A stretch of 64,000 nucleotides of DNA from a virus. Shown here piece after piece: positions 2,330 through 38,233 of this stretch. The DNA is taken from the IMG/VR virus record IMGVR_UViG_3300045988_101454, positions 36,916 to 100,915 of that record; one strand, given 5' to 3'. Each line of letters starts with the position of its first letter. Positions within the stretch are counted from its first letter, which is position 1. The position numbers and the translations under genes are program-made. The notes under the pieces were generated by a model, which ran no database searches, was not told where the DNA came from, and saw only the letters and a program-made list of their open reading frames with translations.

Positions 2330-2471
2330 ACTCTATCAATATTTTCGGTTTATCCACGTCGTGACCCTTACCTCCCCCGGCTATGCACAAGGCTATGCCG
2401 TGTGGTGACACGATGATGCCGTTCTGCGAGGGGCTGTAGGAGCCAAGGATGATGGGGCGAGGGTTGTTCAT
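2322..2471 (-). CDS. TRD-like mini-ORF (49 aa)
   Basis: ATG 2469-2471 overlaps the upstream TGA (ATGA); MNNPRPIILGSYSPSQNGIIVSPHGIALCIAGGGKGHDVDKPKILIEYD*. Confidence 0.4.
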   Translation of the reverse strand: MNNPRPIILGSYSPSQNGIIVSPHGIALCIAGGGKGHDVDKPKILIEYD

Positions 2472-2635
2472 AATTCTACTGCTACATAATAGTGGTTACG
2501 ACTGCTCACTCCAGCTTGAATGGTGTAGATGATACCCCTCCCGAATTGCTTGTTCTAGGTGTCTATCCATACGGCATGAGAGGGGCGGAAACCACGTTTG
2601 TACATTATTTCTAAGCGAGCGTTCTTGTTAAGCAT
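2468..2635 (-). CDS. TRD-like mini-ORF with in-frame TAG
   Basis: ATG 2633-2635 (ATGCTTAA overlap); MLNKNARLEIMYKRGFRPSHAVWIDT[TAG 2555-2557]NKQFGRGIIYTIQAGVSSRNHYYVAVEL*; no ATG after the TAG. Confidence 0.3.
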
Positions 2636-2641
2636 ATTCAA

Positions 2642-2764
2642 TCAGTACCCCTCCAGTTTTGTTGACAAGGTTAGGGTGGGGTATATTCCTTTAGTACCGC
2701 AGATGTTGCCATCAAAACCGGACTTCCACTTGTCGTAATAAATGTTGCCAATCTTTTCAATCAT
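2642..2764 (-). CDS. TRD-like mini-ORF (40 aa as sequenced)
   Basis: MIEKIGNIYYDKWKSGFDGNICGTKGIYPTLTLSTKLEGY*. A +1 change in the GGGG run would give ..KLEGVLIEYA*, ending at 2628 and overlapping the next ATG. Confidence 0.3.
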   Translation of the reverse strand: MIEKIGNIYYDKWKSGFDGNICGTKGIYPTLTLSTKLEGY

Positions 2765-3085: not shown

Positions 3086-3574
3086 TTACACTCCATCCTT
3101 CTTCCTCTCCATATTTTCTTTGAACAATTCCTCAAATCCCTCGAATGGGAACGTGTGGTAATTGCAGAACGATTTCCAATAGCTATCAAACACGAGTCGC
3201 ATACCCTCTATACTATCCGCCAATTCGTCAAGCTCCATATCCCATCCGTTGATGGTGTTTATGAGGTTTTGTAGCCACGTCTTGAGGAACATTGCCGCCT
3301 CGTGTGTCGGTGGCAGGTCGAACTGAAGGAATAGGGCGTTGTCAGAGTCGTTGGTCGTGAGGAACTTGCTCACGGCATCGTCCTTGAGGAAATAGCGGCC
3401 GGACACTTCCTCTTCGAGCACGTCTTCCAGTCGGGTAAGTAGCTCGAAGGGTTCGGGAAACTGGTAGTCGAAGGCCACGTCACGGCGCATGGAGAGGCAG
3501 AACACCCTGTCGCGGTTTTGTGGCACGCCGTAGTTCTAGTCGTTGTAGTGGGTTTGTGGGGAGTCTTGGTTTTG
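3086..3574 (-). pseudogene. C5-cytosine DNA methyltransferase fragment starting at motif VIII
   Basis: ..THYND[TAG 3536-3538]NYGVPQNRDRVFCLSMRRDVAFDYQFPEP..GRYFLKDD. The QxRxR motif and following blocks are typical of Dcm-type enzymes. No motifs I, IV or VI upstream (TAA at 3575-3577) and no motifs IX or X downstream. Confidence 0.65.
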
Positions 3575-5906: not shown

Positions 5907-6170
5907 TTATCTCTTTCTTCGCTTCGCCTTGCGTCGTTCTTGCAGGTTATGCTGCACAAGTTGCGTAATGGTGAACGATGGCGACCCGTCGGGCAAAATG
6001 AATCGGATTATCCTCTTCGCCTTGCCTTCAATGAACTTGTCAATACACTCCAATACTTCCTGCAAAATCTGCTGCTGCGATTTATTCTTGTCGGTCTACT
6101 GCTCATACAACTGGCGGATGTATGCCGGATTGACGGTAACGATGTATTGTCTTTCTTTATGTATCTTCAT
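5907..6170 (-). CDS. small basic protein (87 codons) with in-frame TAG
   Basis: ATG 6168-6170 follows the conserved leader; MKIHKERQYIVTVNPAYIRQLYEQ[TAG 6096-6098]TDKNKSQQQILQEVLECIDKFIEGKAKRIIRF...RKAKRRKR*; no ATG after the TAG. Confidence 0.45.
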
Positions 6171-22943: not shown

Positions 22944-25900
22944 TTTGTTCTTCATAAACTGATTAGCCCTTGTCATGCTGTCATAGAGCTTGCCACGTCC
23001 ATACATATCAATCTTTGCCTCGATAGGTTGCTCCAGGCGTTGCAAGAGCGTGTTTACGGCTTGCAGGAGCGCAATATTTGTGTTGGCTTGTGCAATAGTC
23101 AGTTCATCGCTTACAGAAGCTCCTGTAGATACTGTGGGGCTTGTTTCGGCTATATTGCCAGCGTCGTAGGCGCGACGGCCTGAATAGTTGCGATCGTAAT
23201 TTACAAGAGCCTTCAACAGTTGCGGATTGTTCATCATCATTGCCTGGGTTGTCTCTCGACCGATTACCAACTCGGGACCATTTTCGGCTACCAGGGACGG
23301 ATGACCGTTGATGGTGGTGGCGGTTGGATGCGTAAGGAGCGACACGCCGTTGTGCGGCTTGTTATCCTCGGTTGCCCAATAGAGACTACCATCGTTACCG
23401 ACGAACGGACGGAGGTCTTGCACGTTGCCGGAATCGTAGGTAAGCATACCGGAAACAACCTTAGTATTCTTACCCTTGGCTGTCTCGTTTTTAGACTTGT
23501 CGCTGCCACCAACCTTGCTGATAGCAAAGTTGAGTAATCCCATGAGGATTGCCATCATTGCGCTGTAAGCGATTGGACCGGCAATAGGTCCGAGAGTACT
23601 GACACACCAACCAAATATACCCGCAGAACGAAGAGCTGCCATTACCTTTTGGTGAGCAACCTCAAGCTGTTCCTCTGTCTGGTTATTTACCGTCTTTGCC
23701 ATAAGCAAAGCCGCTCCAGTGGCAGCCTCCCCTTCTACCTTTGCTGTACCGAACGCCTGCTGCATGAGAAGCAACTGCGTATAGTGAGCCGTGGTCTGCG
23801 CACGGTCTATCTGCTGCTGACTTATCATCTGCAAGGTGTTAGTGGCAAACGATTTTATCATCTGCTTTAAGGCTGTCTTCAATGCCTTGCGTCCTTCCGC
23901 TGCGTTCTCGGTCATAGTGGCAAAAGCATCGCCCACCGACTCGCCAAAGGTTTGCAACGGTCCCATGAAAGTAAGAAGAGAATTGTACTGCTCAAACATA
24001 TCTCCCGTGAGCTTCTTGGCATAGTTAGCCTGTTCCGCCATTATTGACTTTCGGGCATCAGCAAGTTGCTGCTCGGTGGCGTTGTGCTCTTCGAGGAACG
24101 TATAATACTGCCGAGCAAACTCCATGCGAGCCTTCATAAGTTCAAGCTCAGGGTCGGAAGCTGACACCGACTCCATACCCATACGCTGACCGGCATTGCG
24201 ATAACTGACATTAATGGAAGACTCCTGTTCCATTCCTGGTAGTTTACTTTGGTAATCTTTATAGAAATCAGTCTTAGACCAACCGTAATCATTCAGCTTC
24301 TTGCGCTCGTCATCGCCCTTTTTGTTTGCCGACTCGTATTCGTCGTTGTATTGAATGAGTTTCAGAAAGAAGGCTTGCCATTCGGCTGCACTTGAGCCGA
24401 GAGTTTCGGAGATACGTTTGCCCATTCCGTCAGGATCTTCACCAAAGAGCGTTTTCATAAGTAGTCCCCTACCCTCTTCGGTAGATACGTCGGCGGCAAA
24501 TATCTGAGAAATCTCCTCACGAGCCCTCTCAAACATGGCAATGATTTTTGTCTTGCGCGTATCAAAAGCCGCCTTATCTTTAACCTCAGCATCAGTAGGA
24601 TTGGCATAGCCGAGAGTATTAAAGGTATCGTATGCGCTTTGCTTCACCACACCCGTGTAATCATGCTCTTGCATCGCCTTGCGACGAGCCTCCTGCTGTT
24701 GTGTTTCGAGTTTTAGATTAGCTTGTGCGTTCTTGGTGGCCTTGGCAAATACCTCGGCGAGAATGGAGTTAAGAGAACGGTTGAGATTACTGCCCAATTC
24801 GTTCAGTTTCTTACGCAAAGCGTCTATATTGTTAGACGTAATACCTTTGAGCAATCCTTCAGAAAGATTTACACCGGTCTCGTCGGTTTGCTCGATAAGG
24901 TCGTCCTTCATGGTGAGCTTGAACTGCTCCCATGTGTTAGTCTGTCCTGCGATAGCAAGGCGAACCTGCTCAAGAGCCTCGTTCATGCGTCGCTTTACTG
25001 GCTCCACAAACAAGTCTTGCTCGGTTTTATCCATACCCAAGCCGATGGCCTCCTGCATCTTGGCGTTTATCTGACGCTCATAGAAGTTGCGTACGTTATC
25101 CATGATAGCGTTCGCGTCGTCCTGCTTCTGCTTCAGTTCCTCACGCCAAGCACGCTCTAGGGCGCGCCTGTCTCGCTTTTCCTGTGCGATAGCGTCGTTG
25201 TCGGGAACATCGTTTTCAAGCGTGCCAGGTGTTTCTTCGGGGTACGGGGTGTAGCCTTCAGGAAACCACTTACGGTAATTGTCTTCAATATCCTTTTCTT
25301 TCTTCCTTCTTCTACCCGTAGAATTGGCATACCAACGAGCAGCGAACAACAAGTCTCGGAGCTTGTACTGCATCTGACTATCATCAGAATTAATACCCGC
25401 CTTTCCTCCGTCATAAGTATCTCTATAAATAAAGCCACCTTTACTAAGTTTCCAATTAAAGCCGTCTATCAAGCCCGACTTGTTCTTAGGCATCTTTTTA
25501 ACCAAATTCCAAAAAACAGCGTTACCGTTAGCACCCTTACTCACCCATCGGTCTATATCAGTGAAAGAAACCCCGAGTTTGTCAATGCCCAATTTTTGAA
25601 TCTGAGCCAACAAAGCGTTTGCAGCAGAATCCCTATCCGCATCGAGTTTCGGCAGAGCTTGTTGCTTCGCTTTCTCCATCATACGATAATAAGTAGCCCT
25701 CTGGGCCTCTTGCGCCAACTCTGAATAGTGGTCGCGCAAATCCTTTACACTCTTAATTTCAATGCCGAGGTTTGAGATATACGAGCGGAAATCCTTGTTG
25801 AATCGCGATATGAGACCTTGACGTTCCTTTTGCGAAAGGTTCGTCTCATTCATCATCCGCTTGTAGTTCTCGAGTTTCTTGTTAAGAGTTGCTGTCTCTA

Positions 25901-28517
25901 CAGCAGCCTGACCAAGAGTAGATTTCCATGCGTTTGCCTGACGTTCTGCTTCTTTTTGAGCTTTTGCCGCTTCTTTTGTCTGCTGTGCATAACCATACAC
26001 AACTCCAGCAACAGCAACTATAACGCTTGCAAGAGCCACCCAAGGATTCACCTTCATTACAGAGTTAAGTCCCGTTTGAGCTGCGGTGGCTGTGCGCGTG
26101 GCCGTAACATACGCATACAGTTGGCTTACAGCCGAGCCAATGGCTGCTCCGAAATTCTTAATAAGAATCAATCCGGAATATATACCCTGTGAAGCCATAT
26201 AGCCAATGATGACTGGCAGAAGGGTCGCTACGGCTTTCAATGCCATAAGAACCATCTGAAGAGAAACAAGCAATGTGCCTTTCAGCAACGGACTGTTTGT
26301 CATCGTTGCCGACATCTCATACCACCATTCCGCCATACTCTTTACAGCATCCACACCGTCGGGATTTACAAACGCCTTCTCCCAAAGATTGTTGGCTCTT
26401 TCGAGAATACCTATGGCCGACTGTTGCTGCATCGAGTATTCATTACCTACGGCAGTGGCTTCACGGAAAGCCTCTTCCGACTCGTAGAGATGATCCTTCA
26501 GCATATCCACGTTCTTCGACATGGTAACCATAGCGGTAACGAGTCGCTGACCGTCTGAACCGAGGTCTTTAAAAATGCCACCCAAGGCGTTCATGTTGCC
26601 CTTGTCGCGCATTTTTTCGAGCACAAGCACAATAGCATCCATAGCGTGACCCGACGCATAGAGATTCTTGATTGTCTCGTCGGGTATGCCGAGTTCCTTT
26701 GCAATAAGGTTGTGGTTTTTCTGCAAAGCTACGATAAACTTACCCATAGCGGTAGAGGCCACCTCCGGCATAAGCATCATCGAAGAACTTGCAGAACCGA
26801 GGGCAAGCAACTGGTCGGTGGTGATACCCGCGGTACGAGCAACACCCGTCAGCCGCTTTGAAAATTCTACAATGTCGTTGGAAGTTGAAGTGCTCGTAGA
26901 AGACAACTTAAACAGGGCAGAACCCGTAGCCTCCATTGCCTTGTCGATACCCATCTTCGGGATAAGACCCATCACCTCCACCATCTTAGAGAGTGCCGGC
27001 AACGCTTCCTCGCCCATTTCCTCACCAATGGCAACATTTATCTTGTCGGCTGCTTTTACGAACTGAGCCATACCCTCAACGCCGTACTTACCCATGCCGA
27101 GCTTCGCACCCTGGTACGCGAGTTGTGCCAGCCCATCCACAGATGTTCTGGTGTCAATTTTAGCCAACTCGGTAGAGAGTTGTTTTACCTGATCCATCGT
27201 CAAGCCAGAAACCTTACGGATGTCGGTCAACGAACCTGAATACTCCAAGTTCTTCTTGATGGCACCCGTCACAAGGTCTTTTATCTGATTGAATACGGAA
27301 AACAATCCTACATAAGCCGTAAGATTTTTCAACGCCGTATGCCATGCTCCGCCCTGCTTGTTTGCCGCACCCGTCACTTCGTCGATGTTCTTCTTCAGCT
27401 CCTCCATCGACTTCTGCTTGTCGGCAAACTCCTTGCTCTTGGTGTTGATTTGGTTCAGTTCCTCTTCAAGCTGTTTGTAGGCACGGCGCAGTTCGTCGAG
27501 AGAGGCTTTACCCTTCTTGCTACGGGCGAGAATGTCGTTGAGAGCACTCTGCGACATACGGGTGCCCTTGAGGGTCTGTTCGAGCATGGAGTATTGGCGA
27601 CGGAGGTCGGCCACAAACTTGCTACCAGCAGGGAGTTGCTGTATCTTCTGCTGTATCACTTCCATCGTGCGCTTGATGTCTTCGCCCGAAGCCTTGTTGG
27701 GCTCTGCCAACACCTGCTTCATCTGCTTCCAGCTCATTGATGTTTTCTGAACCTTACCCGACACAGCCTCCAGTCGCTTTTCTATCTCCTGGAGCTCTTT
27801 GTTGTATTGCGCAATGTCGCCAGTATTTGCTGTAGGAGTATTGTCACGAGCCTCAGTAAGCGTGGTCTTAGCGCGTCGCAGGTCGGAAGCCGAAGCATTA
27901 CCATTGCTCACAGCCTGACGTGCCTCAGTTACGCTCATCTTGCCCTTACGTCTGTCCTCCTCGGCTTCAAGCTGCTTCAATGTGGCAAGGTTCTGCTGAT
28001 ACGACGCATCCGACTTTTGCAGCGAACCAACAAGGTCACGCTGTTGCTTAATGGCCTTATCGAGCCACTGATCGGATTGGTTCTTTACATTCTTCAAGCC
28101 ATCGGCTATATTAACATACTGACCCTCGATAAGGCGCATTTGGTCGCCCACCTGCTTCATCTCGCTTCGTATCTGCTCTGCCCTCTTCAGGTCGGCATCC
28201 GAGCCGGTAAGACCTGCGAGAGCCGACTTACCCGAACCCATAGCACGGCGAAGATCACGCAGTTTAGTATTGGCAAGGTCTTGCACCACCTCGCCCAATC
28301 GCTTCGTGTCCTCGATATTGTCACGCTGTACTTGCGAGAGAGCCTTTAGCGTGCGTTCTGCTTGCTTACACTCAGCCGTATTAGCCTGACCTGCAGCAGT
28401 CATTTTCTGAATGTCGGCAGTATATTTCTGCACAAGAGCGTCAATCTCTTCCAATACCTTTTTGGCTGTAGAGGCATTGGCCGTGATTACCACTTTTGCT
28501 AATCTTTGTGTTGCCAT
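22941..28517 (-). CDS. tail tape-measure-like protein (1858 aa)
   Basis: Very long, mostly coiled-coil ORF with central hydrophobic/TM-like blocks (..LLVSLQMVLMALKAVATLLPVIIGYMA..). Size and composition are typical of tape-measure proteins; ends in TAG. Confidence 0.6.
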   Translation of the reverse strand: MATQRLAKVVITANASTAKKVLEEIDALVQKYTADIQKMTAAGQANTAECKQAERTLKALSQVQRDNIEDTKRLGEVVQDLANTKLRDLRRAMGSGKSALAGLTGSDADLKRAEQIRSEMKQVGDQMRLIEGQYVNIADGLKNVKNQSDQWLDKAIKQQRDLVGSLQKSDASYQQNLATLKQLEAEEDRRKGKMSVTEARQAVSNGNASASDLRRAKTTLTEARDNTPTANTGDIAQYNKELQEIEKRLEAVSGKVQKTSMSWKQMKQVLAEPNKASGEDIKRTMEVIQQKIQQLPAGSKFVADLRRQYSMLEQTLKGTRMSQSALNDILARSKKGKASLDELRRAYKQLEEELNQINTKSKEFADKQKSMEELKKNIDEVTGAANKQGGAWHTALKNLTAYVGLFSVFNQIKDLVTGAIKKNLEYSGSLTDIRKVSGLTMDQVKQLSTELAKIDTRTSVDGLAQLAYQGAKLGMGKYGVEGMAQFVKAADKINVAIGEEMGEEALPALSKMVEVMGLIPKMGIDKAMEATGSALFKLSSTSTSTSNDIVEFSKRLTGVARTAGITTDQLLALGSASSSMMLMPEVASTAMGKFIVALQKNHNLIAKELGIPDETIKNLYASGHAMDAIVLVLEKMRDKGNMNALGGIFKDLGSDGQRLVTAMVTMSKNVDMLKDHLYESEEAFREATAVGNEYSMQQQSAIGILERANNLWEKAFVNPDGVDAVKSMAEWWYEMSATMTNSPLLKGTLLVSLQMVLMALKAVATLLPVIIGYMASQGIYSGLILIKNFGAAIGSAVSQLYAYVTATRTATAAQTGLNSVMKVNPWVALASVIVAVAGVVYGYAQQTKEAAKAQKEAERQANAWKSTLGQAAVETATLNKKLENYKRMMNETNLSQKERQGLISRFNKDFRSYISNLGIEIKSVKDLRDHYSELAQEAQRATYYRMMEKAKQQALPKLDADRDSAANALLAQIQKLGIDKLGVSFTDIDRWVSKGANGNAVFWNLVKKMPKNKSGLIDGFNWKLSKGGFIYRDTYDGGKAGINSDDSQMQYKLRDLLFAARWYANSTGRRRKKEKDIEDNYRKWFPEGYTPYPEETPGTLENDVPDNDAIAQEKRDRRALERAWREELKQKQDDANAIMDNVRNFYERQINAKMQEAIGLGMDKTEQDLFVEPVKRRMNEALEQVRLAIAGQTNTWEQFKLTMKDDLIEQTDETGVNLSEGLLKGITSNNIDALRKKLNELGSNLNRSLNSILAEVFAKATKNAQANLKLETQQQEARRKAMQEHDYTGVVKQSAYDTFNTLGYANPTDAEVKDKAAFDTRKTKIIAMFERAREEISQIFAADVSTEEGRGLLMKTLFGEDPDGMGKRISETLGSSAAEWQAFFLKLIQYNDEYESANKKGDDERKKLNDYGWSKTDFYKDYQSKLPGMEQESSINVSYRNAGQRMGMESVSASDPELELMKARMEFARQYYTFLEEHNATEQQLADARKSIMAEQANYAKKLTGDMFEQYNSLLTFMGPLQTFGESVGDAFATMTENAAEGRKALKTALKQMIKSFATNTLQMISQQQIDRAQTTAHYTQLLLMQQAFGTAKVEGEAATGAALLMAKTVNNQTEEQLEVAHQKVMAALRSAGIFGWCVSTLGPIAGPIAYSAMMAILMGLLNFAISKVGGSDKSKNETAKGKNTKVVSGMLTYDSGNVQDLRPFVGNDGSLYWATEDNKPHNGVSLLTHPTATTINGHPSLVAENGPELVIGRETTQAMMMNNPQLLKALVNYDRNYSGRRAYDAGNIAETSPTVSTGASVSDELTIAQANTNIALLQAVNTLLQRLEQPIEAKIDMYGRGKLYDSMTRANQFMKNK

Positions 28518-28537
28518 TGTTTTCTGTTTTTGTGTTG

Positions 28538-29065
28538 TTAGAGAGTGATATGGATGTCAGAATCCTCAAAAGCCTTAATTATCTGTGCTTCGCCCTGGTA
28601 GCCGTAGAAGTCAACGAGATAGTTTTGCATACGCGATTGCAGGTGTCGAAGCTCCATCATAATGGCAGGACGCTGTGACCGACCCGCTCCATAGCGTTTC
28701 CAGGAACGGACATAGCGGCGAGAGTAGTTGGCCTTTCGTGCGCTATCCACATCGTTGTACTTAGTACCGAGACCTACACCCATATCCACAAAGCGCATAT
28801 AGTCGTTGTAGGTAAACTCGTAGGTCCAGCCTTCCGGAGTGTCGTTCACTATCCTGCCTTGGAAAGAGTTTACGCCCACTCCCTCGGCGTGCCATTGTCC
28901 GCGTGCTCCACGGGCATCGTTTATAGCCCGAAAGCCGCTGTAAATCTCCTTCGGGAAGATGCACTGCGTCTCGGTGTTTATCTTGAGCTGACGCAATACG
29001 TCGCCAAGATACCATCGTGCGGTGTCCTTGAAATCAAAGGCCGGGGCTTGTATTGGTTTTGGCAT
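28538..29065 (-). CDS. hypothetical protein (possible tail assembly chaperone by position)
   Basis: 175-aa ORF immediately upstream of the tape-measure gene. Confidence 0.35.
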   Translation of the reverse strand: MPKPIQAPAFDFKDTARWYLGDVLRQLKINTETQCIFPKEIYSGFRAINDARGARGQWHAEGVGVNSFQGRIVNDTPEGWTYEFTYNDYMRFVDMGVGLGTKYNDVDSARKANYSRRYVRSWKRYGAGRSQRPAIMMELRHLQSRMQNYLVDFYGYQGEAQIIKAFEDSDIHITL

Positions 29066-29071
29066 GATGTT

Positions 29072-29674
29072 TTACTTTTTTTTATCATCCGAGTTTTCAT
29101 CTTTCGGCACAATATACTTGCCGTTGCTGCCACACGCGAAGTTGTATAGCGGTTGCAGGCTCTTCCAGTCCATACCCACGACGAGCCATTGTCCGGCATA
29201 GATGTCGCCCACCATGCCGAAGGAGATGGAGCTGGTGTCGATGCTTTGCAGCTCTGCCATCACCACGGCATCATCGGCAAAACTGCGCTTTGTGACGGGA
29301 CAGCGGCCTGTGCGCTTCACCTCAAGAAGCCACGACACGAGGTCTTTACAATAGTCCTTCAGACTTTCGGCTGTCTGTTCCATCTTGCGACCGTCGTAAC
29401 GGCCAAGGGTCTGCGGTGTGTCTTTTACTTTAGCGAGAAACCACACCTGCTGAGAGACAGATGCCTTCTTTGCGTCAACGAGTTCACCAGTGGTAATGAT
29501 GCTGTATAGCATACACGGCGAGTGAACGATGTTGGCATTTCGGGAAAAGATGTTCTCAAGGTCGATGTAGCGGATGCGGAAGAAACTCTGGTCTTCGAGG
29601 CGTTCGCTTTCGGGGTTGTGAGAAAGGGGCTCGTAGATAGAAGCCCAATGCTCAAGAATATTGCTTATTGTCAT
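29072..29674 (-). CDS. hypothetical protein (tail-module position)
   Basis: 200-aa ORF, second gene upstream of the tape-measure gene. Confidence 0.35.
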   Translation of the reverse strand: MTISNILEHWASIYEPLSHNPESERLEDQSFFRIRYIDLENIFSRNANIVHSPCMLYSIITTGELVDAKKASVSQQVWFLAKVKDTPQTLGRYDGRKMEQTAESLKDYCKDLVSWLLEVKRTGRCPVTKRSFADDAVVMAELQSIDTSSISFGMVGDIYAGQWLVVGMDWKSLQPLYNFACGSNGKYIVPKDENSDDKKK

Positions 29675-29764
29675 AATGCTGCTAAATTTTGATTTTACAT
29701 CGGGAGAAAGGGCTAAGCCTCACTGGACCTCACTGAGCCTTTCTAAGCCTTTGGGAGGGAAGCC

Positions 29765-30292
29765 TTACTGCTCTTTCGCTGTCTCCGCTGTTTCCTCCGC
29801 TTCCTCCTTATCCTTCATCAGCTCCTTCAGCTTTACGTTGAAGTGTCGCTCGGTCTTATCTGCCACAATCTTTTGCAGCACTCTTGCCCATGCCGCTCCG
29901 TTGCAGGTGCTCTCATTTTCGAGTATGCTGACGAACTGCACCAGGCAGTACATGGCGGTGAGTTGGTTGGCGAGGTGGGTGTTCATGTAGCCGAGAATGT
30001 TGCGGTCAATATACGAGGCAAGGCAGATGCACATGATTAAGACCGAGAACGTCCACACCATCTTTGCCATCTTCTTGGAGCGCAGCTTACCGTCCATCTT
30101 ACACTTCGGGTTACGCTTTATCTCCTCGCGGTATTTTTGATAGATGCGTCGGTTGCATCGCCATGCCGTATAGCAGTCGATGATGAGGGCGAAGAAGCAT
30201 ACGGTGATAAAATTGATTGAGGGTTCGATGTGAACCCACAGCAAGCCGAGCACTGCGGCAATGGCTCGCGAGACATAGAATGGATTGTTCAT
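29765..30292 (-). CDS. holin (phage holin_4 / toxin-secretion holin family-like)
   Basis: TM segments plus ..ALIIDCYTAW.., ..ASYIDR.., ..QFVSILENES.. blocks typical of this holin family. Confidence 0.6.
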   Translation of the reverse strand: MNNPFYVSRAIAAVLGLLWVHIEPSINFITVCFFALIIDCYTAWRCNRRIYQKYREEIKRNPKCKMDGKLRSKKMAKMVWTFSVLIMCICLASYIDRNILGYMNTHLANQLTAMYCLVQFVSILENESTCNGAAWARVLQKIVADKTERHFNVKLKELMKDKEEAEETAETAKEQ

Positions 30293-30424
30293 GTTTTTGT
30301 GTTGTGTTTTGTGTTGTTGTTGTCCTAAATTTTATGCAACAAATTTACTGATAAACTGCTACGCACAGCGGACATGGTGGGGTACGGGGAGATTGAGCAT
30401 GTCCGTATGGGGAAGAAAGTTTAT

Positions 30425-30432
30425 CGTAACTT
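30425..30432 (+). promoter_or_regulatory. -7 box TAACTTTG for the plus-strand operon
   Basis: TAnnTTTG 23 nt upstream of ATG 30456, in the divergent region. An 8-bp inverted repeat CGGACATG/CATGTCCG lies at 30370-30405. Confidence 0.35.
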
Positions 30433-30455
30433 TGGCTACATAAAAACACAAAACT

Positions 30456-31262
30456 ATGTCAGGAATTACGCAAAACACATTGGCCCGCATCGACAAGTGG
30501 CTCTCTTACGGCACGAGTATGCAGACGGCGTTCCCCAAGCTGGATCAACGCTACCGTATGCAGATATGCTCAGAGTTTTATAAACGATGGGTGCAAAACA
30601 AGGACATCGACCCTCGGACGGTGTGCCGCAATATTGCCCGACGCGACTATGAGATGTTCTTCAACCAGGCAGCGCAGGGCAACAAGGAGGCGCAGGAGTA
30701 TGTGCTTGCGCTGAAGATTACACTCGACGACGAGGGTAATATCTGTCCGCGTACCGTTACGGAGCTCAACAACGACGTGTTGGTGTGCAACCACCTGATA
30801 CGTTTCTTCCAGACCGACGAGAGTCCACGCCACAAGGCTATGTATCTGAGCAGTGCCGAGTGGTTGATACGCACGGGTAAGCAGCAGAACAACGATCGTG
30901 CAGTGGATAAGGGTATGCAAGCCTTAGCTAATGTGTATGGCAACTTCCAGGAGGAGAAAGACGCTACGGACGAGATGCCGGATATGAGTCGCATTGCCAT
31001 CACGCAGGATGTGAGCATCGTCAAACGCGACCGCATCAACTACACCGAGGAGGAGAAGCTGCGCATGGCCCGCAAGTATGGTCTTACTACCAAGGACCTG
31101 CAGGAGATAGAGGACGACGAACTGTTGAATGGGGAGAAGCCAGAAGAGCCGGACTACTTCGAGTATATGGAAAAGAAGGACGAGGAGGATGTGATTAGAC
31201 ACGGGTACATGAAAGAAAGCAAATTAACAAATAATTCCGAGCCAACGGATGATACGGAATGA
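30456..31262 (+). CDS. hypothetical protein; possible small terminase subunit by position
   Basis: First gene of the plus-strand block that ends with the large terminase; acidic C-terminus; no motif recognised. Confidence 0.3.
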   Translation: MSGITQNTLARIDKWLSYGTSMQTAFPKLDQRYRMQICSEFYKRWVQNKDIDPRTVCRNIARRDYEMFFNQAAQGNKEAQEYVLALKITLDDEGNICPRTVTELNNDVLVCNHLIRFFQTDESPRHKAMYLSSAEWLIRTGKQQNNDRAVDKGMQALANVYGNFQEEKDATDEMPDMSRIAITQDVSIVKRDRINYTEEEKLRMARKYGLTTKDLQEIEDDELLNGEKPEEPDYFEYMEKKDEEDVIRHGYMKESKLTNNSEPTDDTE

Positions 31263-31283
31263 ACGGAAACATAAGGAATAGAG

Positions 31284-31847
31284 ATGAAAATAGGACTCAT
31301 AGACGTGGACGGACGACACGGCAAAAAGAAATGGGGAGCTACGATATACCCTAACGTGGCTCTCGGCAAGATTGCCCGTTGGCACACGATACGGGGCGAT
31401 GAAGTGGAATGGGCTCAATCTACCGACCTTTTCGACAGGCATCATTACGACATACTGTATGCCAGTAAGGTCTTTAACTTTTCGCCCGACATCGACTTTC
31501 GGCAGTTCTCCTACGACCGGTTGGAGAAGGGTGGCACTGGCTACGACATCTATAAGCGTCTGCCCGACGAGATAGACAAACTCCAGCCTCTCTACGCAAT
31601 GTACCCTTGGCTACCGAAAAATCAAGCCGTAGGCAAACTTACCGAGGGGTGCCCTAACAAATGCTTCTGGTGTGTCGTTCCGAAAAAGGAGGGACGCATA
31701 CGTCCTTACATGGATATAGAAGAAATTGCCATCGAGGGGCGCACGCATGTTGTGCTGATGGACAACAACATTCTTGCGGCGGGTGACTATGCAAAGGAAC
31801 AGCTCAAAAAGATAATCGACCTTGGTCTGCATATAGACTTCAATTAG
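31284..31847 (+). CDS. radical SAM protein, N-terminal part (ends at in-frame TAG)
   Basis: GCPNKCFWCVVPKKEG is a CxxxCxxC cluster motif; TAG at 31845-31847 is in frame with 31851-32303. Confidence 0.7.
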   Translation: MKIGLIDVDGRHGKKKWGATIYPNVALGKIARWHTIRGDEVEWAQSTDLFDRHHYDILYASKVFNFSPDIDFRQFSYDRLEKGGTGYDIYKRLPDEIDKLQPLYAMYPWLPKNQAVGKLTEGCPNKCFWCVVPKKEGRIRPYMDIEEIAIEGRTHVVLMDNNILAAGDYAKEQLKKIIDLGLHIDFN

Positions 31848-31850
31848 GCG

Positions 31851-32303
31851 ATGGACGCACGGCTTGTCACTCCGGAATATGCCGAACTGTTAGGCAAGGT
31901 GAAATGGATAGACTCCCGCATCCGCTTTGGTTGCGACACCACAGCACAGATAGCAGAGTGTGAGCGAGCCATGCAACTTATCAATGCAGCAGGATTCCGG
32001 GGCGAATACTTTCTCTATACCATGATAGGCGGCAAGAACGACGTCCGAGAATGTTACCACCGTCTGCACTACTGGTGGGAGCGACTGCAACGCTTTCGTA
32101 TGAGCCATGAAGGCAGAGCCGTGTACGCCTACGCACAACCATACCGTGACCCTACAAATCCCAATCACGCAATCCCCGAATGGCAGAAGGATATGGCCCG
32201 ATGGTGCAACAAGCGAATGATATTCTGCACCACCGACTTCAAGGACTTCATGCCAAGAAAGGGTTTCAAGTGTGAGTGGTATTTGAAGGAGTACGGAATA
32301 TAA
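31851..32303 (+). CDS. radical SAM protein, C-terminal continuation
   Basis: Same frame as 31284-31847, separated by TAG-GCG; ..HIDFN[TAG]AMDARLVTPEYAELLGKVKWIDSRIRFGCD.. Confidence 0.6.
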   Translation: MDARLVTPEYAELLGKVKWIDSRIRFGCDTTAQIAECERAMQLINAAGFRGEYFLYTMIGGKNDVRECYHRLHYWWERLQRFRMSHEGRAVYAYAQPYRDPTNPNHAIPEWQKDMARWCNKRMIFCTTDFKDFMPRKGFKCEWYLKEYGI

Positions 32304-32376
32304 GGTGATAGGTATAACCTTAGCGAAGTAATAGGCATAACATAAACTTCATAAACAAAAGCAATATACAAACGAT

Positions 32377-33066
32377 ATGATAACAGAGAATTTACAGAAA
32401 AAGATTGATCGTGCCATCCGTCTGCTTCAAGGCATACAGAAGTTATACGATGGCGAGATAGAGATAGCCTATTCGGGCGGTAAGGACTCCGACGTGATCC
32501 TTCAACTGGCGAAAGAGTCCGGCATCAAGTATCGAGCCATATACAAGAATACGACCATCGACTCGCCAGGCACGTTGGGGCACGTCAGGGAAATGGGAGT
32601 GGAGATACTGCGGGCAAGATTCCCTTTTTTTCATCTCGTGGCGCAGAAAGGATTTCCATCTCGCTATAGTCGTTTCTGTTGTGAAAAACTGAAGGAATAT
32701 AAGGTGCTCAACAAAAGCATTATCGGCGTGCGCAAGGCTGAGAGCTGGAAACGAAACGAAAGATACAACGAGCCAACAAAGTGCCGATACTACGGAGCGA
32801 AGAAAGAGGAAAATCACGTAGAACAGATTTATCCTATTCTGGAATGGACCGATGAGGACGTGCGCAACTTCATCATAGACAGAAAGTTGAAACTCGCACC
32901 CATTTATTACAATTCGGGGGGGGCAAATCGACGTGTCGAAACGTCTCGGCTGCATGTGCTGCCCTCTCGCCTCAAGGCGCAAGCGCATTATCGAGTTTCA
33001 GAAATATCCCAAGATAGCAAAGGCTTATCTCCGTGCGGGGCAACGATTTATGGAAACGCATCCTGA
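32377..33066 (+). CDS. PAPS-reductase-family (PP-loop) protein, N-terminal part; frame breaks at a G8 run
   Basis: AYSGGKDSDV PP-loop. After G8 (32916-32923) the sequence turns non-protein-like, and the real continuation is in the next frame. Confidence 0.8.
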   Translation: MITENLQKKIDRAIRLLQGIQKLYDGEIEIAYSGGKDSDVILQLAKESGIKYRAIYKNTTIDSPGTLGHVREMGVEILRARFPFFHLVAQKGFPSRYSRFCCEKLKEYKVLNKSIIGVRKAESWKRNERYNEPTKCRYYGAKKEENHVEQIYPILEWTDEDVRNFIIDRKLKLAPIYYNSGGANRRVETSRLHVLPSRLKAQAHYRVSEISQDSKGLSPCGATIYGNAS

Positions 33067-33229
33067 CAGCAAGGCGTGCCAGAGGTACGACAACGTTTAC
33101 GAATGGTTCACTCGCGACGTATTTTACAGCTCCGATACAGATTGGAACAAGGTAAGCACAGGGCTGTTCGGTAAGCCGGACTTCAAGAAGTTCTTGGAGG
33201 ACAAGTTCTGTATTGACTTGACATTATAA
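32933..33229 (+). CDS. PAPS-reductase-family protein, C-terminal part
   Basis: ..SKRLGCMCCPLAS.. is the conserved C-terminal Cys motif. This frame is open from 32924 and joins the upstream ORF if G8 becomes G7. Confidence 0.7.
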   Translation: MSKRLGCMCCPLASRRKRIIEFQKYPKIAKAYLRAGQRFMETHPDSKACQRYDNVYEWFTRDVFYSSDTDWNKVSTGLFGKPDFKKFLEDKFCIDLTL

Positions 33230-33240
33230 ACAACACAATT

Positions 33241-33522
33241 ATGATAACAATAAAAATCAAGACATGGAAGGACTGGAAGCAGGACTTCATCGATTGGGTA
33301 AAGGAGCCACGGCGCAAGACGTGCAAGGAGTATGTGGACTACATGGAGGCTTTACAAAAGAAGACTCTCTACAAAATAATAGATGACACTTGTGATAAAT
33401 ACAACAACATGCGTGAGGGTCAAATCCAAGACATCACAGAAGCAGTAGAAAAATGCGTGGCTGCTTGTGCTGAAAAAGCACGCAAGTTAATCGATGATTG
33501 TCAGCCCGCAAAATTTTTCTAA
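33241..33522 (+). CDS. hypothetical protein (93 aa)
   Basis: ORF track. Confidence 0.5.
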   Translation: MITIKIKTWKDWKQDFIDWVKEPRRKTCKEYVDYMEALQKKTLYKIIDDTCDKYNNMREGQIQDITEAVEKCVAACAEKARKLIDDCQPAKFF

Positions 33523-33563
33523 GACTGGAACTTCCATTATAAGCAACAAAAACTCTACACAAC

Positions 33564-34142
33564 ATGAACAACAACATAAAAAGAAAGGACTGGGTGGGCG
33601 GCTCGGCCGCTGTATTCAAGACGTTGGGCGCAAGCAACCATACGGATGCGGATAGACAGCGTGAGGATTACTATGCCACAGAACCGAAAGCGACGGAATG
33701 GCTGTGCAAACTGGAGCATTTTGAGGGCCGGATATTGGAGCCTTCGTGTGGCGAGGGTCACATGAGCCGGGTGTTGGAGGCAGCAGGATATGAGGTGGTG
33801 AGCCGCGACCTTGTGGATAGAGGTTACGGCGAGGTGGCTGACTTCCTCTCAATAGACAACTTGGCGTGGGACGGAAACATCATCACCAATCCGCCCTACA
33901 AATTCGCACAGCAGTTCGTTGTGAAGGCTCTGAGCATCATCCCCGAAGGAAAGAAAGTGGCGATGTTCCTTAAGCTAACTTTCCTCGAAGGCAAGGCTCG
34001 ACGCACTCTCTTCCGTTCTACCCCCCCCCATTCGTGTTTGGGTAAGCTCGTCACGACTGAAATGCGCTCCAAACGGCGACTTCAACGCTATTGTTGGCAG
34101 CGCAACGGCTTACGCATGGTTTGTATGGGAGAAAGGATATAA
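33564..34142 (+). CDS. N6-adenine DNA methyltransferase (NPPY type); frame breaks at a C9 run
   Basis: EPSCGEGHM (motif I) and IITNPPYKF (motif IV). After C9 (34021-34029) the conserved end ..IRVWVSSSRLKCAPNGDFNAIVGSATAYAWFVWEKGYKGETTVKWFN* continues in the +1 frame to TGA 34171-34173. Confidence 0.75.
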   Translation: MNNNIKRKDWVGGSAAVFKTLGASNHTDADRQREDYYATEPKATEWLCKLEHFEGRILEPSCGEGHMSRVLEAAGYEVVSRDLVDRGYGEVADFLSIDNLAWDGNIITNPPYKFAQQFVVKALSIIPEGKKVAMFLKLTFLEGKARRTLFRSTPPHSCLGKLVTTEMRSKRRLQRYCWQRNGLRMVCMGERI

Positions 34143-34193
34143 AGGCGAGACAACTGTAAAATGGTTTAACTGATAGAAAAAAAACAATAGAGC

Positions 34194-35096
34194 ATGATAG
34201 AACTGAATAAGATATATAATGAAGACTGCCAGGAAGGGATGATAGCCATTCAAGATAATTCCATAGACCTTGCGGTTGCAGACCCTCCTTACTGGAAAGT
34301 AATTGACGAGCAATGGGATTATCAATGGAGAACTGAGAGCGACTATGTGGAATGGTGCATTAAATGGATGAAGGAGGTTGCACGAGTTTTGCGTATAGGT
34401 GGAACATTCTACTGCTTTGGTTATTTCAGAATCTTAGTCTTGCTCATTCCTTACCTTGAATCACTTGGACTTGAATTAAGACAGCAAATTGTTATTGATA
34501 AGGGTATGCGTGTCGTAAGCGGACGGGCTACACGAAGATACAAGATGTTTCCTAACGTAACGGAAAGCGTACTCTTTATAATCAAAGACAACAAGAAATT
34601 TGTAAAGCCATTCCTCAAAGAACGCCAAGAAGCATTAGGACTGACTGCCAAGCAAATCAATGAAGCGTTGGGGGTTAAGTCTAATGGCGGTGGCATGTGG
34701 AGTATTTACACCGGCAATAACGTATGTGAGCAATTTCCTACGAAGGAGCTCTGGGACAAACTTTCCCATGTACTCTCCTTTGATTGTCCGTATGAAAAAG
34801 TCGCTCAGACATTCAATCCGCAAATAGGAGTTACTGACGTGTGGTCTGATATTAACTTTTATGAAGAAAAACATATCCATCCCACTCAAAAGCCGTTAAA
34901 GCTAATCCGTAGACTGATAAAAGCCAGCAGTAACGAAGGTGATATTGTCTTAGACCCGTTTTCGGGAGTGGGAACAACGCAGGTAGGCTGCGTACAGACC
35001 AAGCGCAACTTCATCGGCTTCGAGCTCAACAAGGAGTATTACGACAAGGCTTGTAAGCGCATCAAGTTGGAGCAAGCGCAGTTCACGCTGTTCTGA
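34194..35096 (+). CDS. N6/N4 DNA methyltransferase (DPPY type)
   Basis: LAVADPPYW (motif IV), HPTQKPLKLIRRLI, and the C-terminal FSGVGTT SAM motif. Confidence 0.8.
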   Translation: MIELNKIYNEDCQEGMIAIQDNSIDLAVADPPYWKVIDEQWDYQWRTESDYVEWCIKWMKEVARVLRIGGTFYCFGYFRILVLLIPYLESLGLELRQQIVIDKGMRVVSGRATRRYKMFPNVTESVLFIIKDNKKFVKPFLKERQEALGLTAKQINEALGVKSNGGGMWSIYTGNNVCEQFPTKELWDKLSHVLSFDCPYEKVAQTFNPQIGVTDVWSDINFYEEKHIHPTQKPLKLIRRLIKASSNEGDIVLDPFSGVGTTQVGCVQTKRNFIGFELNKEYYDKACKRIKLEQAQFTLF

Positions 35097-35163
35097 CAAC
35101 TCAAAAATGGATAAATCCTAATCGCCAACGGCGACAATTCAAAACGAATAAATGATATAGAGA

Positions 35164-35949
35164 ATGATAGAACTGAATAAGATATATAATGAAGACTGCC
35201 TGGAAGGCATGAAAAGGATTCTGGACGGAAGTGTGGATTGCATTGTGTGCGATTTGCCGTATGGTACTACTGCTTGTGCTTGGGATAGCGTAATTCCATT
35301 TGACAAGTTGTGGGAGCAATACAAGAGAATCATAAAGAATACTGGTGCTATAGTCTTGTTTAGTCAGCAACCTTTTACGTCTGCGCTTATCATGTCGAAC
35401 ATAGATATGTATAAGTATAATTGGATATGGAAAAAGGAGAGTGGTACTAATTACTTAAATTCCCATCATCAACCATTGAAGATTACAGAAGATATATGTG
35501 TTTTTGGAATGGCAGCAACAACTGAAAGCAAGAAAAAAAAGTATATGGAGTATCATCCTCAAATGATTAAGGGGTACAAGCCTTATGCCTGCAAAAATGG
35601 CATTCAACGAAAAGACGCTGCAATGGTACGAGGAAAATGTCAAGCGCAGACTGGAGGAGCTGTGACAGTAAGTGATGGTTCTCGTTTCCCTATAAATTTA
35701 CTCGAATTTATTCGGGATAAGGAGAAGATCCATCCCACCCAAAAGCCAGTTGCTCTTATTCAGTACCTCATCCGTACCTACTCCAACGAGGGCGACACCA
35801 TATTAGACAACTGTATGGGCAGCGGCACCACCGCCATTGCAGCTATCCGTGAAAAGCGCAACTTCATCGGCTTCGAGCTCAACAAGGAGTATTACGACAA
35901 GGCTTGCAAGCGCATCAAAATGGAGCTGGCGCAGCCTACTCTCTTCTGA
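35164..35949 (+). CDS. N6/N4 DNA methyltransferase (D-L-P-Y variant); tandem paralog
   Basis: IVCDLPYG, HPTQKPVALIQYLI, CMGSGTT. The first 37 nt and about 65 nt of the 3' end are near-identical to 34194-35096. Confidence 0.8.
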   Translation: MIELNKIYNEDCLEGMKRILDGSVDCIVCDLPYGTTACAWDSVIPFDKLWEQYKRIIKNTGAIVLFSQQPFTSALIMSNIDMYKYNWIWKKESGTNYLNSHHQPLKITEDICVFGMAATTESKKKKYMEYHPQMIKGYKPYACKNGIQRKDAAMVRGKCQAQTGGAVTVSDGSRFPINLLEFIRDKEKIHPTQKPVALIQYLIRTYSNEGDTILDNCMGSGTTAIAAIREKRNFIGFELNKEYYDKACKRIKMELAQPTLF

Positions 35950-35981
35950 CAACACAACTAACAACAACACAAAAACAACAC

Positions 35982-36212
35982 ATGAGTAACAACCGACACA
36001 AATACTTCAACAAGGTACCGCCGTTCAAGCCGGACCCTGAACACTACACTCGCAAGCAGCACTCTTGGAAAGCGAAAGAGGCTTACGAGACGGAAGATGA
36101 TGCTTGGGAATATCTCAATCAGAATCCGAAGCTGCGGGCACAGGGCATGACAGCGTACCGATGCAGGACGTGCAACAAATGGCACATAGGACATAAGACG
36201 CACAGCGAATAA
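35982..36212 (+). CDS. small protein with a C-terminal CxxC (76 aa)
   Basis: ATG 35982 after a CA-rich leader; ..AYRCRTCNKWHIGHKTH. Confidence 0.5.
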   Translation: MSNNRHKYFNKVPPFKPDPEHYTRKQHSWKAKEAYETEDDAWEYLNQNPKLRAQGMTAYRCRTCNKWHIGHKTHSE

Positions 36213-36241: not shown

Positions 36242-38233
36242 ATGCAGCAAGCACACAACATATACTTAACCAAATTCCAGCAGCAGTCACTATACATGGG
36301 AGCCAAGGACGAGCGAGTGATTGCTGCCCGCCGTGTGGGTAAGACCGACGGACTTGTGGCTCCTTACGTCTGGATGGCAAGCAACTCCATGCCTGGTATG
36401 CTCGGCGCATGGGTGGCAGTGTCGCGTCAGCAGGGCTTCGGCAAGACCATACCGAGTACGATGGCAGCAATGGAGCGTATGTTCGGCTTTACGCAGGGCA
36501 TTCACTTCGGTTGGGGTCGCCCGCCGAAACATGCCCGTGAGAGTATCTTCAAGCCCAACAACTACGACAACTACATCTGGTTTGCCAATGGTGCTGGATG
36601 GGTGCTTATATCCCTCTCGCAGACTGCGAGTGCCAACAGCTACACTTTTAGCGCACTTGTGGGGGACGAAGCGAGGTTCTTTCCGCTAAAAAAGGTAACT
36701 GACGAGTTGCTGCCGGCTCTTTCTGGCCAGACGCATCCATTGGGCGACATCAACTTTACGGAGTATAATCCGATGTATAAGAGTACGCGATTCCTCTCCG
36801 ATGCTGCGCTCACAGCCAAAGGGTCGTGGCTCGAAAGGGAGGAGGAAAAGTTAGACATGGCAGTTGAGACGGGTCCGTTCAAAGGAAAGACCTACCGATG
36901 GGTGCAGGAGCAGTTGGAGGATTATGCCGACAAGGTGATACGCTACAACGACCTGCTGTATAACGCCAAGAAGACCAATCACTCGGTTCATGTAGTTCCG
37001 AAGGAGTTGCGCACAATGATTCGTGCCGTGGCTCTGAAGATGATGAAGCACGAGGGGCAGTTCCGCATTATGCCTAATCATGGGCAGCACGTCACTAAGG
37101 GTATGGTGGAGATGGCGGTAAACTATAAACTTATTCCGCAGGACGATGCCGAACTGGTTTATGATTACGAGTATCTGATTACGCCAGAAGAGGATTTTGA
37201 GATGCAGATGTTCCTGCGCTCAAAGAAGTTTGCGGATGGATATCTGCGTGAGCTGCGCCGCGTGGCTTTCTGTGTGCGCCGTGCGTCATCCCTCGACAAT
37301 GTGGATGTTTTGGGTGAGGATTACATAAGGCAGATGCGCCGCGATCTTCCACCCATGACCTTCGCAATTTCAATCCTCAACATCAAAGTAAAGAAGACAA
37401 ACGATGGCTTTTACTCCAACCTCGACATCGACCATGTTCACGGGTATATTCCAGATGAGGATATTTTAAATCAAGCAAATTTTAGCACAAAAAAAGTAAC
37501 GGGTATAATCGGCGGCAAGCGCATCACAAGCGAGAGTTATCAACCCGACTTCAAGGAGTTGGGCGAGCGCAACGACTCACGCATGGACTCCGACTGCATC
37601 AACTCCCTCCCCTTATACATAGCCTTGGATTACAATGCCAACATCAATACCTTGGTGGTGGGACAGATGTACGAGCGTGACGGGATGGAGTGTCTGAACG
37701 TGATCAAGAGCTTCTATGTGAAGAACGAGCGCAAGCTGCGTGAACTGATAGCCGATTTTTCTGATTATTACGCACCCAAGCGAGCCATCAACCGCGACGT
37801 GACGTATTTTTATGATGCCACAGCCAAACAGGGAGCCTCGTATGCTTCGTCAGACGAGCGATTCTACATGACCGTGATTGCAGAATTAGAGAAGCGAGGT
37901 TGGAACGTGACGGCCATTGACATGGGCGCACCGGAGAAGCACGAGGTGAAGCACAAGATTATCAACGACGGCTTGGCTCACCTCTCCTACCCTGCCATCC
38001 GCATCAACCAGGTAAACAATCCCGACCTTATCATTGCCATGCAGCTGTGCGAGGTGCAGATTTCGTATAAGGGATTCCACAAAAATAAGAGTCAAGAAAA
38101 AAAGCCCGAGAGTGAAGACACGCTGCCCTTGGAAAACCGTACCGATTTTACGGACGCTTTCGATACGCTGTATTTAGGTTGCAAGTTCTTCCGAGTCGGT
38201 GGCGGTTGGTTTGTGCTGCCAAGTGGAAGATGA
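36242..38233 (+). CDS. terL: terminase large subunit
   Basis: Walker A-like AARRVGKTDG and Walker B-like FSALVGDEARF. 663 aa, with size and layout typical of TerL. Confidence 0.75.
   Translation: MQQAHNIYLTKFQQQSLYMGAKDERVIAARRVGKTDGLVAPYVWMASNSMPGMLGAWVAVSRQQGFGKTIPSTMAAMERMFGFTQGIHFGWGRPPKHARESIFKPNNYDNYIWFANGAGWVLISLSQTASANSYTFSALVGDEARFFPLKKVTDELLPALSGQTHPLGDINFTEYNPMYKSTRFLSDAALTAKGSWLEREEEKLDMAVETGPFKGKTYRWVQEQLEDYADKVIRYNDLLYNAKKTNHSVHVVPKELRTMIRAVALKMMKHEGQFRIMPNHGQHVTKGMVEMAVNYKLIPQDDAELVYDYEYLITPEEDFEMQMFLRSKKFADGYLRELRRVAFCVRRASSLDNVDVLGEDYIRQMRRDLPPMTFAISILNIKVKKTNDGFYSNLDIDHVHGYIPDEDILNQANFSTKKVTGIIGGKRITSESYQPDFKELGERNDSRMDSDCINSLPLYIALDYNANINTLVVGQMYERDGMECLNVIKSFYVKNERKLRELIADFSDYYAPKRAINRDVTYFYDATAKQGASYASSDERFYMTVIAELEKRGWNVTAIDMGAPEKHEVKHKIINDGLAHLSYPAIRINQVNNPDLIIAMQLCEVQISYKGFHKNKSQEKKPESEDTLPLENRTDFTDAFDTLYLGCKFFRVGGGWFVLPSGR

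Follow-up and report, generated by a model that had tools for sequence, protein, structure and literature searches.

Does an in-frame TAG that divides a radical S-adenosylmethionine (SAM) gene of a gut phage mean that the codon is decoded, that it gates expression, or that the gene has been inactivated? The question is raised by positions 31,284 to 32,303 of a 64,000-nucleotide stretch of viral DNA (IMG/VR record IMGVR_UViG_3300045988_101454, positions 36,916 to 100,915 of that record), the whole of which is here called the window. All three answers had been offered in the original prediction for this DNA, and TAG-to-Gln recoding has been documented in gut phages of Bacteroidota (10.1101/2021.08.26.457843; PMC9523058). 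The evidence presented here indicates that TAG 31845-31847 is very probably an ordinary, recent amber nonsense allele of an often-inactivated accessory gene, in a phage of about 101 kb that uses the standard code.

An invariant glutamine codon is replaced by TAG

Translated in a single frame, 31284-32303 (+) consists of 187 sense codons, the TAG, 151 further codons and a terminal TAA, giving a gene of 339 codons. The cluster motif GCPNKCFWC (Cys123, Cys127 and Cys130) lies N-terminal of the TAG, where it had been placed by the original prediction. Two profile matches span the TAG, namely Pfam Radical_SAM (PF04055; residues 119-221; 21.9 bits, below the gathering threshold of 29.5) and phrog_9298 ("radical SAM domain protein"; residues 1-335, E = 2e-84). 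The open reading frames (ORFs) 31284-31847 and 31851-32303, which share one frame and are separated by TAG and GCG, are therefore one gene, as had been proposed.

A collection of 5.8 billion proteins yielded about 4,400 homologs of the radical SAM protein, nearly all of them 330-350 amino acids (aa) long and uninterrupted; the best (P0001-P0003) are 92% identical, 343-348 aa long and unbroken. In the alignment across the TAG, which had been suggested as a check, position 188 was Gln in every aligned homolog (two alignments, n = 25 and n = 34), and the homologs continued past the site without interruption. Gln188 is situated inside the most conserved motif of the family, DFNQAxDARL (D185-L194). 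The DNA of the nearest relatives reads AAT/AAC-CAG-GCG where the window reads AAT-TAG-GCG. CAG was found at codon 188 in the related loci L001, L005 and L008, and a degenerate-motif scan of IMG/VR revealed CAG in 44 of 44 matching contigs and TAG in none. Since the relatives all have CAG at codon 188, the TAG in the window corresponds to one C>T transition private to the strain. The gene bears the mark of a nonsense allele, in that a conserved sense codon has become a premature stop and the orthologs of close relatives are intact. In two other strains a C-terminal ORF of 150 aa also begins at Met190, but the idea that they share the TAG was rejected, as both were frameshift alleles in which Gln188 is intact.

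Besides the TAG, the window gene contained no other disruption, and the secondary decay of a young pseudogene is absent. Downstream of the TAG, the differences between the window and L005 (89% nucleotide identity) were distributed over the three codon positions as 9:4:53 and were concentrated at the third. Private substitutions at columns conserved to at least 90% numbered 0 in the window gene, the TAG excepted, and 1-23 in intact homologs. Because the gene is otherwise undecayed, the mutation would be evolutionarily young. A scan for sigma-70 promoters and terminators around the gene, which does not cover Bacteroidota promoters, gave nothing informative.

The exact split gene was present on three contigs of the public collection, one of them 100% identical to window positions 21284-35024, and the 187-aa product was recorded identically from JGI/IMG, including a 100,915-bp contig, and from ENA. 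The three contigs may all come from one sample. The T at 31845 could accordingly be a sequencing, assembly or consensus error or a minority variant in a population with CAG, as only a single base is concerned and the contigs with the allele may share one source (BRIT16-1 / SAMN02334005, plus the 100,915-bp JGI/IMG contig). However, the same base was found in at least two assemblies from different holders, ENA and JGI/IMG, consensus substitution errors are rare at good coverage, and nonsense alleles of this kind recur across many independent samples of related phages, so that a real mutation would be unremarkable. Such an artefact is very unlikely.

The genetic code of the phage

Five hallmarks distinguish alternatively coded phages: coding density rises, suppressor tRNAs are encoded, structural and lysis genes contain recoded stops, the stop in question is depleted among terminators, and the guanine and cytosine (GC) content is low (10.1101/2021.08.26.457843). 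If the code had changed, TAG would be decoded as Gln (code 15) by a phage suppressor tRNA, either fully or in late infection; two of the window TAGs do align to conserved CAG codons for Gln, and such recoding has precedent in Bacteroidota gut phages. None of the published hallmarks was, however, found.

ORFs of at least 100 aa covered 0.840 of the window with the standard code and 0.872, 0.891 and 0.935 when TAG, TGA and TAA, respectively, were read as sense. This comparison had been proposed as a check, and the gain for TAG was the smallest of the three stops, without any TAG-specific increase in density. Standard-code ORFs spanned 88% of the window, and the leftover gaps look non-coding in all six frames. 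TAG was not depleted as a terminator, since it ended 14 of 83 greedily chosen ORFs (17%), among them all seven that had been listed by manual reading; in 7 of the 14, a further stop followed 0-6 codons downstream. Homologous genes in relatives ended in either TAG or TAA (2 TAG and 2 TAA for the tape measure, 15 TAG and 1 TAA for gene 6974). The absence of internal TAG from the large structural ORFs held throughout: no break was seen in the tape-measure gene (1858 aa), the ORFs of 1221 and 568 aa, the terminase gene or a holin-like ORF, and the ambers are located in the radical SAM gene, an 87-codon ORF and a methyltransferase relic. The GC content of the window was 40-52% and thus not low.

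The suggested search for a suppressor tRNA, made with ARAGORN, detected no tRNA in the window or in the next 10 kb of the same genome on each side (L009 and L015). Loci of related phages, 5.5 Mb and 1.2 Mb or about 6.7 Mb together, likewise yielded no tRNA whose anticodon is CUA. The only tRNA found in these loci was a tRNA-Met(CAT), together with four variants with an aberrant anticodon loop. The four window ambers align to Gln, Gln, Lys and Tyr, which is not as a Gln-specific reassignment predicts, and where relatives have ambers in these genes, the aligned residue is Tyr, Trp, Glu or Gln. TAG was present at codon 188 in no relative. With four of the five published hallmarks tested contradicting it, a code change is barely credible. 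Amber gating, the second reading that had been offered, is likewise not borne out, as the TAG is not conserved in any relative.

The tRNA-Met(CAT) gene occurs in at least 45 relatives (L320-L387, at about 9864-9940), some 60 nt upstream of the homolog of the 568-aa gene. It is cleanly absent from the window and from L319, between AACACAG and GCAACC; the corresponding site of the window is at about 16,480-16,560 (-), just upstream of the 568-aa gene (14765-16471). In the more distant relatives L353, L354, L364 and L367 an odd-loop version is found, reported by ARAGORN as tRNA-??? with a 2-nt anticodon. The genome of the window also encodes an RtcB-family RNA ligase and a GNAT acetyltransferase (L015:13621-14796), about 2.3-3.5 kb past the left end of the window. 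RtcB is often linked to tRNA repair; in this RtcB-encoding phage, the parts scanned contained no tRNA gene.

In-frame stops across related phages

An enlarged survey encompassed 319 loci and 5.5 Mb of relatives. In-frame stops were filtered by codon-usage log-odds on both sides and by a homolog bridging the stop without a gap. An unfiltered first survey with about 2,500 "junctions" had been discarded because these were mostly conserved off-frame ORFs, and a greedy-ORF filter had been discarded because off-frame cases still passed.

The survey gave 41 distinct bridged in-frame stops (21 TAG, 14 TGA and 6 TAA), at most two of them in any locus. The shares expected from codon usage for single-step nonsense mutation are 0.44-0.54 for TAG (about 0.52), 0.20-0.32 for TAA (about 0.27) and 0.18-0.37 for TGA (about 0.20), the high expected share of TAG being due to the preference of this genome group for G-ending codons. 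The observed TAG share of 51% equals the mutational expectation. TAA was under-represented (6 versus about 11.5 expected) and TGA over-represented (14 versus about 8; chi-square about 7, 2 degrees of freedom, p about 0.03), a weak skew that could stem from better tolerance of leakier stops or from the filters. A tolerance of amber codons, considered on the basis of the first sample (12 TAG, 5 TGA and 0 TAA), was rejected when the enlarged sample and the codon-usage expectation removed the TAG signal.

Recurrent disruption of the radical SAM gene and its partner

The radical SAM gene was surveyed in relatives by tblastn (53 loci, 44 distinct contigs). TAG was seen five times, at Gln188, Tyr242, Trp208, Glu172 and Gln285, and TGA three times, each at a Trp codon. 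Listed by locus, the TAG alleles of relatives are Tyr242 (L005), Trp208 (L119), Glu172 (L124), Gln285 (L127) and Gln216 (L227), and the TGA alleles identified overall are at Trp33, Trp264, Trp265 and Trp278. Frameshifts were found in at least six lineages, mostly in homopolymer runs: a G4 run had grown to G5 or a C3 run to C4, loss of a G had created an A8 run, a poly-G tract had a length of 7 or 9, or 11 bp had been inserted. In L001-L004, the G run near codon 18 has a +1 frameshift, and L008 combines a C-run frameshift with TGA at Trp265. About a quarter of the 43 distinct copies in the IMG/VR clade were disrupted, versus 5 of 80 in Bacteroidales genomes, where three frameshifts, a TAG at Gln and a TGA at Trp were seen. 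The 90%-identity clusters to which the two fragments of the window belong contained 24 N-terminal and 43 C-terminal fragment proteins, which included a stop at Trp208 (16 contigs) and a stop at Gln173. The neighbouring gene for a PP-loop ATPase was affected in relatives as well, by TAG at Trp, Tyr and Gln codons and by TGA at an Arg codon.

As judged from these comparisons, the pattern of breakage is that of a dispensable, recurrently inactivated accessory module and not that of a programmed recoding site. Of the explanations offered originally, inactivation of an accessory gene agrees with the intact CAG orthologs and the repeated independent knockouts, whereas TAG decoding does not agree with a strain-private TAG, the lack of a CUA tRNA and of a density signal, and ambers that replace Gln, Tyr, Lys, Trp and Glu alongside TGA and frameshifts. 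The unusually frequent inactivation in the phage clade suggests that the module carries a cost or is of use only under some conditions.

In one group of alleles (relatives L102/L122, L105, L129, L109 and L401), the radical SAM gene has a poly-G tract at codons 179-182, equivalent to window positions 31815-31830, which is G7, G9 or interrupted (GGGGAGGGG). The length variants shift the frame, and the protein fragments end in ...KIIRGGII or ...KIIRGGGII. This variation looks like slipped-strand phase variation.

Nonsense alleles of their own were also observed in near-identical strains at other genes. The N6-adenine methyltransferase gene about 1 kb past the right end of the window has TAG at Gln (FFTP#S) in L010:8481-9164, TAG at Tyr in L013:5111-5794 and a C-terminal frameshift in L012:3894-4478. 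A 201-aa gene has TAG at Glu in L017:1500-2105 (window 6974-7579), in a strain 99.9% identical to the window.

The three other in-frame TAGs of the window

Three more in-frame TAGs had been listed at 6096-6098, 3536-3538 and 2555-2557. Each is CTA on the plus strand and TAG on the minus strand, and the first proved to be a true in-frame amber; the other two were correctly located but belong to a decayed island with further stops.

TAG 6096-6098 interrupts an 87-codon gene, and the codon at this site in 21 IMG/VR homologs was CAG in 19, CAA in one and CGG in one. From the codons of its homologs it is a second genuine CAG>TAG nonsense allele. The gene is one of three consecutive small genes preceded by the leader AACGAAAATACAGAGAACAATG, for which three matches were found at no more than two mismatches against 0 expected by chance. 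Similar strings precede the homologous genes in relatives, and the leader is probably a shared translation or transcription signal.

TAG 3536-3538 lies in the relic of a C5 cytosine methyltransferase gene, where the match to Pfam PF00145 extends over just 144-217 of the 324 profile positions and the N-terminal catalytic half is gone. It aligns to a Lys codon (AAG/AAA) of LNAKNYGVPQNR in the intact C5-methyltransferases of relatives, and two in-frame TAA codons are located just upstream. TAG 2555-2557 interrupts a 56-codon ORF at a position where the relatives have Tyr (TAC), with an in-frame TGA 28 codons upstream. On both flanks, L017 matches the window at 98-99.9% identity, but almost the whole of 2,469-6,166 is missing from it; all that it retains is a 159-bp remnant of the methyltransferase relic. 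This segment holds a YopX-domain gene, small ORFs and methyltransferase fragments. As it is mostly missing from so close a relative, 2469-6166 is a variable, decaying accessory island.

The predicted enzyme and its neighbourhood

The AlphaFold model of a 92%-identical intact homolog (mean predicted local distance difference test score 88, predicted template modelling score 0.85) displayed an N-terminal Rossmann-like domain and a radical SAM partial barrel. On this model, the TAG falls directly after the strand 183-186, in the middle of the barrel. The cluster loop C123-x3-C127-x2-C130 typical of radical SAM enzymes was invariant in the alignments, and a few homologs carry a precomputed PF04055 match. 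The nearest Foldseek matches were MtaB/MiaB methylthiotransferases, AprD4 and TsrM (E 2e-10 to 1e-5, TM-score about 0.55, identity 11-14%). A PDB sequence search with the family profile gave no match, and the NCBIfam MiaB/RimO matches, at 16-18 bits, were far below the cut-offs of 251-606. By its predicted fold and its motif, the protein is a divergent member of the superfamily.

The PP-loop gene adjoins the radical SAM gene in all 29 fetched loci with a detected copy. Two alleles of this partner, 27% identical, were observed at the same position, one of 229 aa in the window and one of 346 aa (L001:11154-12194). Each type occurs beside intact radical SAM genes, which points to a cassette-like replacement within the module. 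Homologs of the radical SAM protein occur widely among Prevotella, Bacteroides, Phocaeicola and Parabacteroides genomes. A role of the module in nucleic-acid modification is a reasonable inference from the gene context; a literature search on a phage module of radical SAM and PAPS reductase found nothing specific. The coordinates of the features are listed in Table 1.

Table 1. Coordinates of the features discussed in the window.
Feature	Position	Strand	Remarks
N-terminal 187 codons of the radical SAM gene	31284..31844	+	Rossmann-like N-domain, CxxxCxxC loop (Cys123/127/130), first barrel strands
In-frame amber codon in place of invariant Gln188 (ancestral CAG)	31845..31847	+	From homolog alignments and DNA of relatives
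Context of the TAG	31845-31847	+	...GACTTCAAT-TAG-GCGATGGAC...
C-terminal 151 codons of the radical SAM gene	31848..32303	+	Includes ATG 31851
PP-loop ATPase partner, resembling PAPS reductase and DndC (229-aa allele)	32377..33066	+	phrog_424 and NCBIfam matches
Three DNA methyltransferase genes	33564..35949	+	PHROG matches; between the radical SAM module and the terminase
Large terminase gene	36242-38233		Downstream of the methyltransferases
87-codon gene with TAG 6096-6098 at codon 25	5907..6170	-	True in-frame amber replacing a conserved Gln
Conserved 22-nt leader AACGAAAATACAGAGAACAATG	5870-5891, 6168-6189, 6587-6608	-	Ends in the start codon of three consecutive small genes
5'-truncated C5 cytosine methyltransferase relic	3086..3538	-	TAG 3536-3538 at the 5' edge
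Fragmented reading frame in the same decayed island	2468..2764	-	TAG 2555-2557 interrupts a 56-codon ORF

The phage genome of about 101 kb was reconstructed as two abutting scaffolds of one sample. The ENA assembly splits it at window position 35,024-35,027 into scaffolds of 44,580 and 56,278 bp (sum 100,858 bp, in agreement with the 100,915-bp JGI/IMG contig). Two DNA methyltransferase genes at this place are paralogs (34194-35096 and 35164-35949), and the break falls within the first of them, so that it is probably repeat-induced. A search of the IMG/VR and JGI collections for the rest of the genome gave nothing but relatives, none above 98% identity. When 30000-36000 was compared with GenBank phages by megablast, no match was obtained, and tblastn of the terminase gave only distant matches of less than 32% identity; there is accordingly no cultured relative for comparison. 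The host is probably a member of the Bacteroidales, judged solely by the genomes in which homologs are present.

At 56,493-56,967, some 470 bp of AT-rich, non-coding DNA contain many short tandem and interspersed repeats, with units of 8, 12, 16 and 28 nt built on TACGTA / ATAAATA. This stretch is situated immediately upstream of a ParA/CbiA-like ATPase gene (55651-56493, -) and could be a partition site or an iteron origin.

Origin and consequences of the TAG

The history of the locus may be depicted as follows. A single C-to-T transition would have changed the CAG of invariant Gln188 to TAG in one strain, and translation would stop after 187 residues. The fragment would keep the Rossmann-like domain and the Fe-S loop but lose the second half of the barrel, and the enzyme would most likely be inactive. 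The two-gene module of radical SAM protein and PP-loop ATPase beside the methyltransferases would be dispensable and repeatedly knocked out by nonsense mutations and homopolymer frameshifts. The amber at 6096-6098 (CAG to TAG) would be a second event of the same kind, and those at 3536 and 2555 would have arisen within a methyltransferase island that had already decayed.

Several points weigh against a plain nonsense allele. The TAG is known from assembled sequence alone. About 17 kb of the approximately 101-kb genome lie outside the scanned sequence, and a suppressor tRNA could be encoded there. All four in-frame stops of the window are amber, for which the chance is about 0.07 given the expected TAG share, and two of the four would restore the ancestral Gln if decoded as Gln. 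The ATG at 31851, 3 nt past the TAG (one codon, GCG) and corresponding to the conserved Met/Leu190, is a possible re-initiation site and could permit a two-piece enzyme. The absence of decay fits a recent mutation but fits equally well a selection maintained through read-through or re-initiation.

Some of these points would also agree with a gene that is down-tuned and not dead. Either a near-cognate or suppressor tRNA of the host or of a co-resident element would allow low-level read-through, or translation would terminate and re-initiate at ATG 31851, with the two fragments reassembling. The uniformly amber stops, the ATG close behind the TAG and the undecayed sequence would fit such expression, and the TAA deficit and TGA excess of the clade go in the direction expected if leakier stops are better tolerated. 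Read-through could not, however, rescue the frameshifts that hit the same gene, no suppressor tRNA was present in the sequence scanned, and the TAG share is that expected from mutation. Re-initiation would have to join a protein broken in the middle of its barrel, an unlikely place for a productive split, and a recent mutation accounts for the lack of decay equally well. Leaky or rescued expression, although the main rival, is therefore unlikely, and a recent loss-of-function allele remains the preferred explanation.

A broader version of this idea, in which amber and opal alleles of the accessory genes of this phage stay alive, being tolerated through partial read-through of TAG in the natural host or with a suppressor tRNA from the host or a co-resident recoded phage, is quite improbable. 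Were it true, the module would be a contingency module of Bacteroidales phages with its dose tuned by leaky stops and poly-G slippage, and the strain, whose only in-frame stops are the four ambers, would have been propagated in a suppressor-positive background.

With the nonsense allele as the preferred explanation, the annotation should join 31284-31847 and 31851-32303 into a single, disrupted radical SAM gene, and gene calling should use table 11, the standard code, and not table 15. The locus also serves as a negative example: an in-frame TAG at a Gln position in a Bacteroidales gut phage is insufficient to infer recoding, because, where G-ending codons are preferred, no other single-step change to a stop is as common as CAG to TAG.

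Comparison with known systems

Amber alleles and young pseudogenes of phage accessory genes, such as moron and DNA-modification genes, share with the present case a stop created by a single base, intact orthologs, restriction to one strain, independent hits and the standard code. Nothing material sets the window gene apart from them, and what deserves notice is how often the radical SAM gene and its PP-loop partner are broken.

Phase-variable contingency genes, which switch by homopolymer slippage, are resembled by the radical SAM gene of some relatives, in which a G7/G9 tract with length variants is present. The window allele differs in having no tract at that site (ATCGACCTTGGTCTG) and in being inactivated by a point mutation, which slippage cannot reverse.

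At the level of the protein, MiaB/MtaB and the B12-type radical SAM enzymes TsrM and AprD4 have in common with the phage enzyme the predicted N-terminal Rossmann-like domain with a partial barrel and the CxxxCxxC loop. Unlike MiaB/RimO, the phage protein ends at about 340 aa, with no TRAM-like extension in the model, and unlike MiaB, TsrM and AprD4 it is always paired with a PP-loop ATPase in DNA-modification neighbourhoods of phages and prophages.

Finally, the code 15 gut phages (Borges et al., 10.1101/2021.08.26.457843; Peters et al., PMC9523058) resemble this phage in being gut phages with a probable Bacteroidales host and in having in-frame TAG where homologs have Gln. They differ from it in all the features by which recoding is recognised: in the phage described here no suppressor tRNA was found, coding density is not gained, terminal TAG is not depleted, the GC content is not low, and in-frame TAGs are neither present in structural or lysis genes nor common to relatives.

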